64,000 nt of DNA from positions 1-64,000 of the forward strand of contig CATMOE010000005.1 in the NCBI GenBank assembly GCA_950072105.1, read 5' to 3'. How positions within the stretch are numbered: position 1 is the first letter of the stretch; every line of letters starts with the position of its first letter. Shown here piece after piece: positions 39,001 through 42,000 of the stretch. This DNA comes from an uncultured Dehalococcoidia bacterium (GTDB lineage Bacteria; Chloroflexota; Dehalococcoidia; Lucifugimonadales; UBA3495). Position numbers: made by a program.

Positions 39001-42000
39001 CTGAAATTGTTTTCCCCGCAGCCCTCTTTCCGTTGCTCTTTGTGAGCAGCAATCGCATGTTTGGCTTGAGGTTCCGCTCTAGCTGTACCCCAGGCGCGAT
39101 ATCTCTAAGGGCCTTCGCCCCGACATCCCAGGAACAGGAATCTGAAGGAGCCATCCCGCAATGCCATCATTCGATGTAGTCTCCCGGACCGACCTTATGG
39201 AAGTCGATAACGCCATCCACGGCGTCGAACGTGAGATCAAGCAGCGGTTCGACCTGGCCAACACCAAGTGCGCCGTTTCCCGCTCGGAAAATACGATGAC
39301 GTTGATAGCCGACAACAACATGAAGATGGAACAGGTGGTAGAACTTTTGCGCCTATACCTGGCCAAGCGAAAGGTAGAGTTGGGGGCCCTGGATTTCGGC
39401 ACACCCCAGAACGCTGCGGGCGGCGTTTTGAGGGAGACGGCGTCCATCAAGCAGGGGATCGACGGTGACCTGGGTAGAATTATCAGCAAGGAAGTGAAGC
39501 GCGCCAAGATGAAAGTCCAGGTGACGATCCAAGGCCAGGAACTCCGGGTCTCGGCCAAGAAGAGGGACGACCTGCAGGCGACGATCTCACTGATCAAAGG
39601 GATGGAGAACCAGCAACCTCTGCAGTTCGTGAATTACCGGGACTGACCATGTAGGTATTGGACCAATCACAGGGCCAGTGCCTGTGGACCTGCGGCCCGG
39701 ACCAGGTGGTACTACCTGTCCACCCGCGCCTGCCATCCGGACTACTCACCCTTCACGTGGCGTAGGCGGACAAGCTCTGACCAACAGCCCACCGCTTCGT
39801 GCTTTTTAATAATAAGAAGCTTTCCCAGAACCCGAGGATGCCAAGAGCCGCGGGCTGCTTTCGCTGACCACGATCCGCCGAACCAACGCGGGTTAGCTTG
39901 CATTCCCCGCAGCCCTCTTTACGCTGCTCTTTGTGAGCCACAATTGCCTGTTCAGCTTGAAGTTCTGTTCTCGCTGTACCCCAGGCGCCACATCGACACC
40001 GTGGTCGTTAGCGTAATTTGGCCATCAATATTGCTGCCGACGGCTCTCGTCTGCTTACTCGCCTGGAAGGGTAAATTAAAAGATGGCCAGGGATCCTGTA
40101 GGTTTCCTGCCAAGGTGGCGGGAATGACGATAGTGAGCGCTTTTATTTACACTGGAATTGGAAAGATTCCTTGGGTGGTCTGCTTTTGATGGCCAAGCCC
40201 GACTCAGGGGAGTTTAGCGCTGTTGGAGCCTAGTTATCAAATGATGAAGCCGGGCAGAAACGGGGCGGCCTGGCAGCCTCCTTGCTGGCCCTTGATGCCA
40301 AGCTGTCCCGGAAATAGTCTGTGCACATTGGCCCGAGAAAGCGGTAACTGGCCACCCCAAAAAGACAGCCCCCGGGCGGTCCCAGGGGCTGTTTGTTGAG
40401 CCTAATTTAAATGGCGGGAGTGCGAGGGAGTCGAACCCACCTACCCCGCTCGTCACGAGGCACAACGGATTTGAAGTCCGCAAGAGCCACCGGGCCCCTT
40501 CCACTCCCCCGATAAACTGCTGGTCTGTTTAGCTGGCCAGCACCGCGTCAATCTTGCTCTTCAAGACTCCCTTGGGGACCGCGCCGACTATCTGGTCAAC
40601 CGGCTGGCCGTTTTTGAAGAAGATCAGGGCGGGTATGCTCCGGATGCCGTACTTCGTGGCGATGGCAGGAGCGGTGTCCACGTCGAGCTTGCCGACATTG
40701 ATCTGACCGTCATATTCTACCGCCATCTCATGTACGGTCGGGGCAATCATCTTACAAGGACCACACCACTCAGCCCAGAAATCCACCATTACGGGCAGAT
40801 CCGACTCTAGCACTTCCGCATCCCAATTGTCCTCGTTGACTTCAAAGGGTTCCGACATTGTTTATGCCTCCATAGCATTTTGGTTTACGTATACTTAGAT
40901 GCGTTGGGGACCGTTGCGGTTCATTAATTGCCCCAATGGCCCCCCAGATTTGCCCAGTTTATACCCGAGCCAGACCAAGGTCAACATCGGGGAGTCGCTG
41001 CTTGGCGCGCGGGAATCGGCAGCGTCCCCTCCTTAATGAATGAGGGAATTAAGCGGAGGTTTTTCCGCGGAGAGGGGACGACCCCCCTGTAGTCCCCCCC
41101 TCTAAAAAGGGACATATACTTGGTCTCTCGGGAACTGCTAACGTTGTGATTGGCACGGAACTGAACACGAATCATTGGCTTCCGGCCCTCCTTACTTGTA
41201 TATTGTTGTTTAGGTACTTAATTGCAAGAATTGAAATTAGTTAAAGGACAACAGATAACCCTGTCCCTGGTCTCCTGGGGGCGCTTGGGCGAAGCCATGG
41301 GCCAATGGGAGGAGACGGACGTCTTCGTGACCGGGGGCATACCAGGGGAGAAGGTGGTCGCCGAGGTGGTCAGGGTGCACCGGCGCTACGCCGCGGCGTC
41401 GGTGATAGAAGTGTTGGAGGCGTCGGAATGGCGGGTCGAGCCGCCTTGCCCCTACTACGGCGTGTGCTCCGGATGCCAGTGGCAGCACGTTGACTACCAG
41501 CACCAGCTGACCGTCAAGCAGGAAAAAGTGGCCGACGCTTTGCATCGGGTGGGAGACTTCATCGAATCTCCGGTGTTGCCGGTAAGGCCGTCGCCCATCC
41601 AGTACGGTTATCGCAACCACGCCAGGTTCACCATAAACCGGGATGGCGACCTGGGTTTCGTGAATCGGCAGACCCGGCAGTTCGTACGGATCGATCGCTG
41701 CATGCTGATGCATGAGGGTATCAACGGCCCTCTGGCGGAGCTGCAAGGCAAATGCGCCGAGACATCCCAGCTTTCCATAAGGTCGGGGCAGGAAACCAGG
41801 GATACTCTGGTGCAGCCGACCCTGATCAATCCGGAGATCTCCCTGGCCAGCGGCCAGAAATTCTACGGTGACTCGATCGACGGGCACGCGTTTCGGGTGT
41901 CGTCTCCCTCGTTCTTCCAGGTAAACGTGGAGCAGACGGTTCAAGTGGTGCAGGTCATCCGGGAAGCGCTGGATGTGAAGAAAACCGACGTACTGCTGGA

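Follow-up and report, generated by a model that had tools for sequence, protein, structure and literature searches.

A single tRNA-Sec gene and about 60 predicted selenoprotein genes in an uncultured marine Dehalococcoidia bacterium

Does the only tRNA gene that ARAGORN detected in a 64,000-nt stretch of an uncultured Dehalococcoidia genome (the window, positions 1 to 64,000 of its contig) serve the decoding of UGA as selenocysteine (Sec), and, if so, for how many genes? We are confident that it is the single selC of a marine, aerobically respiring member of the Chloroflexota (Dehalococcoidia) that uses the standard bacterial Sec pathway on an unusually large scale.

The tRNA-Sec gene and its neighbours

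Three features on the minus strand of the window define the locus:

40365..40392, minus strand, terminator-like hairpin from a consensus scan, with 12 pairs (9 G-C) and a 4-nt loop, followed by CTTTTTGGGG
40412..40508, minus strand, selC, tRNA-SeC(tca), identified by ARAGORN and Rfam RF01852
40529..40858, minus strand, thioredoxin gene, 109 aa, Pfam PF00085 Thioredoxin at 113.4 bits

The 97-nt tRNA, with anticodon UCA, matched RF01852 at 66.4 bits (gathering score 47, E 2.4e-11) over model positions 1-91 of 91. Its acceptor stem has seven Watson-Crick pairs and a G.G at the eighth position, the D stem has 6 bp and the D loop 4 nt, the long variable arm has 8 bp, the T stem has 5 positions, the discriminator is G and CCA is encoded. 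The UCA anticodon, long variable arm, 6-bp D stem and 8/5 acceptor/T architecture are those of bacterial Sec tRNAs, and the tRNA-Sec that the first-pass annotation had placed here is genuine and of bacterial type. It is the one tRNA-Sec among the 79 tRNAs of the genome, none of which is a second tRNA with a UCA anticodon.

The thioredoxin gene shares the strand of the tRNA-Sec gene and ends 20 nt upstream of it, and a thioredoxin ORF with the motif WC[GA]PC ended just upstream of tRNA-Sec in all six relatives that were read. Judging from the sequence, the thioredoxin gene and selC are probably co-transcribed. The terminator-like hairpin sits 20 nt downstream of the tRNA-Sec 3′ end and would be the candidate terminator of selC; the consensus scan returned three such sites in 40200-40800, compared with a mean of 0.5 in shuffles.

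The Sec machinery and the use of TGA

The protein components that the first-pass annotation had listed, SelA, SelB and a Sec-containing SelD, were all recovered, each above its curated cut-off:

C17:4235-5578, strand not given, SelA, 550 bits
C10:43609-45465, strand not given, SelB, 352 bits
C60:2148-3071, strand not given, SelD, 385 bits, with one in-frame TGA

Among named SelA relatives, the nearest carry the labels "Chloroflexota bacterium" (96%) and "Dehalococcoidia bacterium" (MAGs), in keeping with the earlier assignment to a marine Chloroflexota MAG; none of the search results gave the name SAR202. A haem-copper oxidase subunit I is present at 532 bits and indicates aerobic capacity.

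With these components, SelD, a selenoprotein here, would make selenophosphate; seryl-tRNA synthetase would load the tRNA-Sec with serine, and SelA would convert the product to Sec-tRNA-Sec. SelB would then bind Sec-tRNA-Sec and a short hairpin within the coding sequence, typically a 6-9-bp stem from 13-17 nt after the U of UGA with an apical loop starting with G and then U or G, and would bring Sec to the in-frame UGA. This route would serve about 60 genes in some 25 families, with 63 UGA codons between them; most encode thiol-type redox proteins in which Sec would replace the active-site Cys.

An alternative explanation is that TGA has been reassigned as a sense codon for Trp or Gly (NCBI tables 4 and 25), selenium not being involved. 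In-frame TGAs do occur in many genes, and long ORFs use TGA less than either other stop; however, it still serves as a normal stop, terminating 480 of 1800 of them. Moreover, the sole tRNA with a UCA anticodon is the tRNA-Sec, with its long variable arm and 6-bp D stem, SelA, SelB and SelD are present, and the TGA columns align with Cys rather than Trp or Gly and fall in known Sec/Cys redox motifs such as UxxC, CxxU and UGSC. We give reassignment almost no weight. The data support decoding of UGA as Sec in this genome, and Sec insertion is predicted at the in-frame UGAs.

Number and families of selenoprotein genes

The genome was scanned independently of the earlier list, using coding potential, hairpins and paralogue BLAST, followed by NCBIfam and Pfam searches of the read-through products. 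Before filtering, paralogue BLAST paired 580 TGA sites with C or U, many of them in non-coding frames of duplicated DNA or at aligned stop codons; flank and frame filters were then applied. A family match spanned the TGA in 56 of 64 read-through products and in 2 of 14 products from a second batch of TGAs in a Cys context. FtrB, an additional AhpC-like gene (on C20) and an NMT1-like gene raised the number of selenoprotein genes from 56 to 59, including one frameshifted redoxin, and a CC/Se-like gene scored 34.9 bits against a cut-off of 40. In total, we count 58 well-supported genes, or 60 with the frameshifted redoxin and the sub-threshold CC/Se-like gene. The claim of at least 56 selenoprotein genes therefore stands, and all 24 families named earlier reappeared in the independent scan; the evidence supports about 56-60 genes in about 24-26 families. 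In contrast, the earlier figure of 57 Sec codons has to be raised to 61-63; the thiolase-like and SelL-related genes have two TGAs each, like the MerB-like gene. The scan was not exhaustive, since the coding-potential filters overlooked the FtrB, C20 AhpC-like and CC/Se-like genes, which were recovered by family searches and the Cys-context screen. An organism with at least 6 selenoprotein genes is called selenoprotein-rich in PMC5029168, and the present genome has 58 that are well supported.

Twelve matches to Sec-specific or Sec-aware NCBIfam models exceeded their cut-offs: seven UGSC proteins, two copies of OsmC_like_Se, GrdA, SelL_rel_redox (151 bits) and SelD. The UGSC family (NF041046) has 12 copies at 76-159 bits, of which 7 exceed the 125-bit cut-off as windowed products and the other 5 score 76-124 bits; a whole-genome search with NF041046 again gave 12 matches, with one TGA in each of 9 among the matches listed. 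These genes match the family model and encode the U of the UGSC motif by TGA, and in paralogue BLAST the U of all 12 copies aligns with U. Several other family matches lie below curated cut-offs, including MerB (NCBIfam 33 bits, Pfam 62), CC/Se (at the score given above) and rhodanese_LYCAU (87 against 115). NF041374 (GDCCVxC) is present in the genome without a TGA, and NF045500 had no match in this genome or in any control genome.

Paralogue BLAST aligned U with Cys in DUF3179, BtuF-like, rhodanese, NMT1-like and other families. Among the families examined as examples of an in-frame UGA where homologues have Cys, the NMT1-like gene has Cys at the U column in 4 of 4 paralogues and retains the TGA in relatives, the CoA_binding_2 column holds Cys in 5 of the 9 loci read and U in the remaining 4, and the first site of the thiolase-like gene holds Cys in 3 of the 7 loci read and U in the remaining 4; reading frames of the relatives' loci were set by motif anchoring. 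The CoA_binding_2 (YccU-like) protein has its Sec at a conserved Cys, and the two Sec of the thiolase-like protein would sit at the two loops from which SCP2-type and classical thiolases provide their catalytic acid/base Cys. These three, the thiolase-like protein with two Sec and the CoA_binding_2 and NMT1-like selenoproteins, are possibly unreported families. Word searches of the review PMC13188914 and of BSepDB (PMC13326102) did not find them, and the BSepDB family list or supplements may contain them.

A number of candidates were not accepted. At C3:132508 a MaoC-like gene has a TGA two codons ahead of a stop, with the hairpin as its only support, and C2:6272, C3:24435 and C64:5595 are without a family match. 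A DsrE candidate at C15:45526 scored 21 bits, below the cut-off, and the whole-genome search gave no DsrE match. C13:6396 proved to be two adjacent genes, with a corrinoid-protein match that stops before the TGA, and the other 12 of the 14 further Cys-context TGAs have domains on one side only or none.

A hairpin downstream of the Sec codons

A strict motif required a perfect stem of at least 6 bp, with its start 11-19 nt past the U of UGA and with an apical loop of either 3 nt (G[GU]N) or 4-5 nt that includes GU. It occurred at 41 of 62 Sec codons, compared with 4 of 554 TGA ends of ORFs of at least 300 codons, a ~90-fold enrichment. Likewise, the motif followed 28 of the 148 TGAs that have coding sequence on either side, compared with 906 of 61,721 (1.5%) with a coding signal on neither. 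Over all genomic TGAs the hairpin alone was uninformative, its frequency (1,664 of 113,345; 1.47%) matching the background of 1.37-1.50% at seven other trinucleotides. A relaxed definition was rejected as useless as evidence because 277 of the 554 controls passed; of 3,712 TGAs with a coding signal it picked out 571, nearly all of those junk by eye.

In the UGSC genes, both partners of 3 of the 8 hairpin pairs change without loss of pairing, and the covariation score of 0.122 (compared with 0.040 ± 0.012) was reached in none of 500 shuffles. The SECIS had been described as uniform, and this is right in that most selenoprotein genes are supported as having a regular hairpin just downstream of the UGA; on the other hand, 21 of the 62 Sec codons miss the strict form, and for 3 of the 62 no convincing hairpin was found (PrxU-like, C4:82373; PrdB-like, C140:4524; redoxin, C7:62751). 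In the bSECIS consensus (Zhang and Gladyshev 2005, summarised in PMC13188914), the apical loop is small, opens with G and then G or U, and lies 16-37 nt from the UGA. The 41 strict hairpins satisfy a stricter version of it, and the SECIS of this genome is a tight instance of that consensus, not a new kind of element.

Conservation of the in-frame TGAs across relatives

The Sec trait extends through the lineage. Of the 59 genomes from the same order, 52 had a tRNA-Sec match scoring at least 60 bits, and UGSC genes with an in-frame TGA were found in all 23 same-family genomes searched, closed ones included, at 2-22 genes each. A TGA was present in all 25 BtuF-like matches with at least 57% identity and in none of the 31 with 48% or less, MerB-like genes had at least two TGAs in 9 of 9 matches, and SelL-related genes had two in 7 of 8. 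Both TGAs of the thiolase-like gene lie at the same columns in three relatives from three genera. In one further search of relatives a TGA counted as internal may be the terminal stop, as it was on reading in one genome (G003).

These data bear on the possibility that the in-frame TGAs are real stops, arising from pseudogenes, assembly errors or adjacent genes in the same frame, and that the selenoproteome is a read-through artefact. Individual cases of this kind do exist, as illustrated by the adjacent genes at C13:6396, the Cys-context TGAs with one-sided or no domains, the frameshifted redoxin and an SDR gene with an in-frame TGA but no hairpin. However, one family model crosses the TGA in 58 genes, paralogues and relatives have Cys or TGA at the TGA column, the same TGAs recur in independently assembled relatives, including closed genomes, and the hairpin is strongly enriched over ordinary TGA ends. 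For the bulk of the genes this explanation is already refuted, and we consider it very improbable for the selenoproteome as a whole.

Assembly quality and the count per cell

A third possibility accepts the use of Sec but takes the figure of about 60 as inflated, contigs of co-binned relatives having added variant copies, such that a single cell would have markedly fewer genes (say, below 45). The MAG comprises 164 contigs (92.1% complete, 6.08% contamination), and its 79 tRNAs are high for 4.1 Mb. A few small contigs are 82-88% identical copies of other contigs; for C104, C139, C149, C161, C163 and C108, matches of 75-89% identity elsewhere in the assembly span 31-87% of the contig. The PrdB-like genes on C105 and C31 (78% nt identity) and the UGSC genes on C1 and C39 (83% nt, 1.7 kb) could be orthologues from two populations, and two same-genus genomes have 10 (G001) and 8 (G002) UGSC copies, compared with 12 here. 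Nevertheless, self-matches of at least 500 bp at 75% identity or more make up just 3.3% of the genome, with none at 95% or more, 47 of 62 Sec codons lie on contigs of at least 20 kb, and dropping every gene on a contig shorter than 10 kb costs only six selenoprotein genes. In addition, closed or nearly closed relatives are also multi-copy, with 8, 9, 10 and 22 UGSC genes in G003, G019, G013 and G015, respectively. We therefore regard substantial inflation as unlikely, if less remote than the two alternatives above, and retain standard Sec decoding of some 60 genes as the preferred reading.

Significance for the lineage

It is quite possible, although we stop short of favoring it, that a marine, O2-respiring order of Dehalococcoidia is selenoprotein-rich throughout and carries uncatalogued families (the two-Sec thiolase-like, CoA_binding_2 and NMT1-like proteins), which may add to the selenoprotein catalogue. 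If so, this richness would contradict the prevailing view, as given in PMC13188914, that large selenoproteomes belong to anaerobes and that aerobes seldom keep selenoproteins. Three features would then be adaptations to decoding Sec in high volume, namely the compactness of the G(U/G)N hairpin, the conserved position of selC behind trx and the sparing use of UGA as a stop. A single count matters less than the lineage-wide pattern: tRNA-Sec across most of the order and several UGSC genes in every same-family genome searched point to abundant O2-respiring ocean bacteria that depend heavily on selenium. Such dependence bears on marine selenium demand and on the idea of Sec as mainly a tool of anaerobes. 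There is also a practical consequence, in that standard gene callers would split or truncate ~60 genes in each genome of this kind and the uniform hairpin offers a simple aid to correction.

Comparison with known selenoproteomes and Sec systems

The first-pass annotation had set this genome above the 39 selenoprotein genes of Syntrophobacter fumaroxidans, a number that is indeed quoted in PMC5029168 but is not the record, published counts reaching 57-63. The Olavius algarvensis Delta 1 symbiont is credited with at least 57 in a 2026 review (PMC13188914) and with 63 in BSepDB (PMC13326102), a Methylomirabilota MAG has 63 (PMC13188914), and Desulfobacterota and Nitrospinota MAGs have 48-57 (PMC13188914, PMC13326102, PMC1976440); Table 2 of BSepDB (2026) gives 63, 57, 56, 56, 54, 50 and so on (PMC13326102). 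With 58-60 genes, the present genome does not exceed the published maximum of 63 but lies near or below it, and it is not the largest bacterial selenoproteome; at ~60 genes it would take a place in the top three or four bacterial counts and exceed every count listed for Chloroflexota. Similarly, the placement outside the three known selenoprotein-rich phyla held in 2016 but no longer does. Dehalococcoidia rich in selenoproteins have already been recorded, because Table 2 of BSepDB lists Dehalococcoidia bacterium UBA1141 with 49 and a second Dehalococcoidia MAG with 46; the part of PMC13326102 consulted merely tabulates both and is silent on the lineage. They belong to the same phylum and class as the present genome, whose count is ~10 higher, partly through the thiolase-like, CoA_binding_2 and NMT1-like families.

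Like the record holders (Olavius Delta 1 and the Methylomirabilota, Desulfobacterota and Nitrospinota MAGs), this genome has tens of selenoproteins, mostly thiol oxidoreductase-like and from marine samples, and shares with them the UGSC, DUF3179, Prx/Trx/Grx-like, GrdA/B, SelW-like and rhodanese families. The detection logic (in-frame TGA, Cys homologue, bSECIS) is also the same, as is the caveat of co-assembly that attaches to MAG or metagenome-bin data. Whereas the record holders are mostly anaerobic or symbiotic Desulfobacterota, the present organism is a member of the Chloroflexota/Dehalococcoidia with a haem-copper oxidase and has no formate dehydrogenase or hydrogenase among its selenoproteins.

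The E. coli-type system, with selA, selB, selC and selD and the fdhF SECIS, is matched in that all four genes are present and the hairpin lies in the coding sequence just past the UGA, with an apical loop that opens with G and then U or G at ~19-26 nt from the UGA, inside the published 16-37 nt. In comparison with that system, the element is very small and varies little, most copies having 6-8 bp and a 3-nt loop, and SelB is predicted to bind it; selC lies behind a thioredoxin gene rather than beside or within selB.

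The tRNA-Sec gene and the Sec decoding machinery

The only tRNA that ARAGORN identified in the 64-kb window was a tRNA-SeC, and the Rfam tRNA-Sec model matched it over its full length at 40416-40508 (66.4 bits, E 2.4e-11; gathering score 47), which confirms the gene proposed in the first-pass annotation. The acceptor stem has seven Watson-Crick pairs and a G.G at the eighth position, the D stem 6 bp with a 4-nt loop, the variable arm 8 bp and the T stem 5 positions; the discriminator is G and CCA is encoded. The cloverleaf is of the bacterial 8/5 type.

Features at and around tRNA-Sec
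40529-40858, minus strand: thioredoxin gene (Pfam Thioredoxin, 113 bits), ending 20 nt upstream of tRNA-Sec
40412-40508, minus strand: tRNA-SeC, anticodon UCA
40392-40365, minus strand: terminator-like hairpin and T run, beginning 20 nt downstream of tRNA-Sec
41222-43060, plus strand: one 612-aa ORF, tRNA (uracil-5)-methyltransferase at residues 224-396 and Maf at residues 401-583

A thioredoxin ORF also ended directly upstream of tRNA-Sec in all six relatives whose flanks were read (loci L262-L267); three belong to different families within the order, and the six together span four families. We infer that the thioredoxin gene and tRNA-Sec are co-transcribed. The gene order thioredoxin, tRNA-Sec, terminator (40365-40858, minus strand) is conserved. 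Profile matches among the further neighbours were to monomeric isocitrate dehydrogenase, a DUF520 protein and TatC, together with the ORF matching both tRNA U5-methyltransferase and Maf, which represents a gene fusion or else two genes sharing one frame. No selenoprotein genes were found within the 64-kb window.

The genome (4,079,588 bp in 164 contigs, GC 57.6%; completeness 92.12%, contamination 6.08%) also encodes the SelA, SelB and TGA-containing SelD that had been reported.

Sec machinery on other contigs
C17:4235-5578: SelA, 550 bits
C10:43609-45465: SelB, 352 bits
C60:2148-3071: SelD, 385 bits, one in-frame TGA

The closest named relative of SelA is from 'MAG: Chloroflexota bacterium isolate SAT91' (96%), followed by an uncultured marine MAG at 88% and, at 57-73%, many MAGs labelled 'Dehalococcoidia bacterium'; these relatives support the phylum Chloroflexota, as previously assigned, and the class Dehalococcoidia. 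The name SAR202 turned up in none of the results. A haem-copper oxidase subunit I is encoded as well (532 bits).

Reassignment of TGA as a sense codon would also produce in-frame TGAs, but 480 of 1800 ORFs of at least 300 aa still end in TGA, the tRNA-Sec is the only tRNA with a UCA anticodon among the genome's 79 tRNAs (and its only tRNA-Sec), and the TGA columns align with Cys; reassignment is therefore excluded. TGA is nonetheless the least used stop in these ORFs (TAG 767, TAA 553) at a GC content of 57.6%, perhaps because a heavy Sec decoder avoids UGA as a stop, perhaps from lineage codon bias alone.

Census of predicted selenoprotein genes

A hexamer coding score, trained on the 1800 ORFs, was computed upstream and downstream of 64,647 in-frame TGAs, 148 of which had same-frame coding signal on both sides. 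When 5,822 windows centred on TGAs were compared by BLAST with every ORF in the genome, one 12-member family aligned U to U, and there were many U-to-Cys pairs. From 237 candidates, 64 were chosen by context and their read-through products were compared with NCBIfam (19 also with Pfam); a family match spanned the TGA in 56 of the 64, all of which were counted as selenoprotein genes. The coding filters initially overlooked three true members, and thus the scan is not exhaustive. Addition of FtrB, an AhpC-like gene on contig C20 and an NMT1-like gene raised the number to 59.

Families recovered (match across the TGA unless stated)
UGSC: 12
DUF3179: 3
GrdB: 3
PrdB-like: 4
GrdA: 1
SelD: 1
SelW-like: 3
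OsmC_like_Se: 2
OsmC with RRUP: 2
Additional OsmC-domain gene: 1
Rhodanese: 3
Rhodanese_LYCAU-type copy with VAYCAU: 1
Grx-like: 2
Uxx-star: 1
ArsC-like: 1
AhpD-like: 1
Deiodinase-related: 1
Prx/Trx/TlpA-like: 6
Redoxin: 1, C7:62751, frameshifted
Thiolase-like: 1, two TGAs
MerB-like: 1, two TGAs
BtuF-like: 2
DsbA-like: 2
CoA_binding_2: 1
FtrB: added later, 78 bits with one TGA in the genome search, 84 bits spanning the TGA
AhpC-like: C20:24993, added later, 57.5 bits spanning the TGA
NMT1-like: added later, Pfam match not across the TGA, Cys at the column in 4 of 4 paralogues
CC/Se-like: C75:3608, NF041239 34.9 bits (under the 40-bit cut-off), one TGA

Because the frameshifted redoxin is discounted and the sub-cut-off CC/Se-like gene is counted only as weaker, the predicted total would be 58 solid selenoprotein genes, or 60 with these two, and 61-63 Sec codons. 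This independent scan bears out the earlier figure of at least 56 genes and recovered every family name among the 24 families listed; the earlier 57 Sec codons is too low, as three genes (MerB-like, SelL-related and thiolase-like) carry two TGAs. The two TGAs of the MerB-like gene had been predicted; the SelL-related gene has a U-L-P-U motif and scores 151 bits to SelL_rel_redox. That list appears to lack CoA_binding_2, the LYCAU rhodanese and one or two of the Prx-like genes.

The redoxin (TGA at C7:62751-62753, plus strand) has a UxxC motif, shifts to the +1 frame from 27 codons (∼80 nt) past the TGA and has no hairpin after it; either this redoxin/deiodinase-like gene is decaying as a selenoprotein gene, or a 1-nt assembly error has broken its frame. 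One family is present without any TGA: GDCCVxC (NF041374; C86:4773-4943, minus strand, 97 bits), listed as the GOS_B selenoprotein family in a selenoprotein review (PMC13188914), occurs here as a Cys form, whereas the genome otherwise favours Sec.

Several candidates were rejected. Among the 64, C13:6396 proved to be two adjacent genes and five were dropped for lack of a family match spanning the TGA; of a further 14 TGAs picked for nearby Cys, 12 had one-sided domains or none. An SDR-family gene (TGA at C7:49167-49169, plus strand) matched at 218 bits across the site with both flanks strongly coding, and was rejected: it has no hairpin and 48 of 49 paralogues have a residue other than Cys at the column. 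Rather than Sec, the TGA there probably marks a nonsense mutation, a misassembly or a stop that is read through.

Co-binning of a related population may have inflated the count to a small degree. Six small contigs are 31-87% covered by self-matches (≥500 bp, ≥75% identity), six selenoprotein genes lie on contigs <10 kb, and 79 tRNAs is high for 4.1 Mb; against this, such self-matches make up 3.3% of the genome, with none reaching 95%, and contigs ≥20 kb hold 47 of the 62 Sec codons. A few small contigs are 82-89% identical to parts of larger ones (C104 to C26:22583-27404, C139 to C61 and C127, C149 to C29), copies that most likely derive from a co-binned related population.

The putative SECIS hairpin

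The strict hairpin required at least 6 bp without a mismatch, a stem start 11-19 nt after the U, and a loop of either 3 nt (G[GU]N) or 4-5 nt with GU in it. It followed 28 of 148 TGAs coding on both flanks versus 906 of 61,721 coding on neither, occurred at 1.37-1.50% of seven other trinucleotides, and was found at 41 of 62 accepted Sec codons versus 4 of 554 TGA ends of ORFs ≥300 codons. For geometry, 59 sites were compared using the strict hairpin if any and otherwise the best relaxed one. The stem had 6-9 pairs in 55 of 59 and its start lay 13-17 nt after the U in 43 of 59; the strict form fails at 21 of 62 Sec codons. The loop was 3 nt in 35 of 59 sites, 32 of them G(U/G)N. Several hairpins are mismatched or start at 20-22 nt, including those of SelD and one rhodanese; the three SelW-like genes have bigger loops (GUGGAU or UGGAU), the SelL-related gene has a single hairpin 20 nt past its first UGA and 11-12 nt past its second, and three of the genes with the 62 accepted codons lack a recognisable hairpin.

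An alignment of 32 UGSC hairpins (31 different sequences; this genome supplied 12 and its relatives 20) was paired in 81% of cells, with both sides changing in 3 of 8 pairs (e.g., CG to GC in 5 sequences) and a covariation score of 0.122 versus 0.040 ± 0.012, reached by none of 500 shuffles. Sliding the stem by -2 left 72% paired because the stem is partly self-complementary, and since the sequences are related, we regard the covariation as supportive and not decisive.

Conservation in relatives

Of 59 relatives, 35 from the same family and one from each of 24 other families in the order, 52 had a tRNA-Sec of ≥60 bits; the remaining seven include fragmented genomes. In one closed relative (G025), contig C1 has 23 matches to the tRNA-Sec model, comprising a 67.5-bit tRNA-Sec and others that include five at an identical 55.9 bits, scattered; the extra matches look like a repeated tRNA-like element.

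All 23 same-family genomes searched had UGSC (NF041046) matches, between 2 and 22 per genome, as did 9 of 16 from other families, and all 150 UGSC matches among those listed had an in-frame TGA, including those in closed genomes (8 in G003, 9 in G019, 5 in G011, 3 in G007). BtuF-like matches had the TGA in 25 of 25 cases at ≥57% identity and 0 of 31 at ≤48%; MerB-like matches had at least two TGAs in 9 of 9, SelL-related matches two in 7 of 8 and one in the other, and NMT1-like matches a TGA in 12 of 13 at ≥46% identity among the genomes searched. A reading of the in-frame TGAs as pseudogenes or errors is excluded for the bulk of the genes: family matches span the TGAs, Cys occupies the TGA columns, the TGAs are conserved in independent assemblies and the hairpin is enriched.

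Thiolase-like and CoA_binding_2 genes

C1:196648-197622, plus strand: thiolase-like gene, TGAs at C1:197308 and C1:197566
C39:28762-29202, plus strand: CoA_binding_2 gene (PF13380, 143 bits), TGA at C39:29137 inside the domain

Downstream of each thiolase-like TGA lies a 7-bp hairpin whose 5-nt loop contains GU. G001, G010 and G015 (78-97% identity) share both TGAs with this genome, two G043 copies have one (Cys at the first column, Sec at the second), and paralogues at ≤42% identity have none. At site 1 (YD-U-YT), four of the loci read have U and three have Cys; at site 2 (NG-U-GG), six have U and one has His. The two sites presumably match the HDCF-type and CxG-type thiolase loops.

The CoA_binding_2 gene, absent from the first-pass annotation, has an 8-bp hairpin with a GUU loop. 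A TGA was flagged in 18 of 22 matches, a flag that can be the terminal stop, as in G003, where the column is Cys and the TGA is the gene's own stop codon. In the nine loci whose column was read, it is U in 4 (G000, G001, G002 and G010) and Cys in 5, the latter from more distant relatives.

Comparison with known selenoproteomes

The quoted 39-gene selenoproteome is indeed in PMC5029168, which gives S. fumaroxidans, with at least 39 genes, as the largest of a sequenced bacterium and names Deltaproteobacteria, Firmicutes/Clostridia and Synergistetes as rich phyla. Later counts of 46-63 supersede this figure, and the claim of a record is out of date: 46 in Desulfosediminicola flagellatus by deep-Sep (PMC12013277); at least 57 in the Olavius Delta 1 symbiont and 63 in a Methylomirabilota MAG in a 2026 review (PMC13188914); and 63, 57, 56, 56, 54, 50, 49, 49, 48 and 46 in BSepDB Table 2 (PMC13326102). 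That table includes two Dehalococcoidia MAGs (UBA1141 with 49 and a second with 46), so the novelty of a lineage outside the known rich phyla is likewise out of date. Full-text searches on selenoproteins in Chloroflexota or Dehalococcoidia gave BSepDB as the one relevant source, and those on SAR202 and selenocysteine gave nothing on the topic as judged at abstract level.

The family table of the review has UGSC, DUF3179, BtuF, MerB-like SaoL, FTR, CC/Se, OsmC, AhpD-related and DsbA-like. The words thiolase, CoA-binding, CoA binding and NMT1 are absent from it, and thiolase, CoA and NMT1 from the main text of BSepDB, though the supplements of both papers may have such families under different names; a selenoprotein literature search including thiolase, selenocysteine and in-frame TGA returned no paper containing 'thiolase'. 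Three candidate selenoprotein families, the thiolase-like family with two Sec, CoA_binding_2 and the NMT1-like family, may be new, as may the conserved trx-selC arrangement.

The same review describes selenoprotein-rich organisms as mostly anaerobic and selenoproteins as seldom kept by aerobes; the spread of the trait throughout this order of oxygen-respiring marine Dehalococcoidia may also be new. We conclude that the observation is real and the count right. The hairpin matches the published bSECIS consensus (PMC13188914): at 16-37 nt from the UGA, a small apical loop whose first two positions contain a G, often followed by G or U. The proposed mechanism is the standard bacterial SelABCD/SECIS pathway, run at very high volume.
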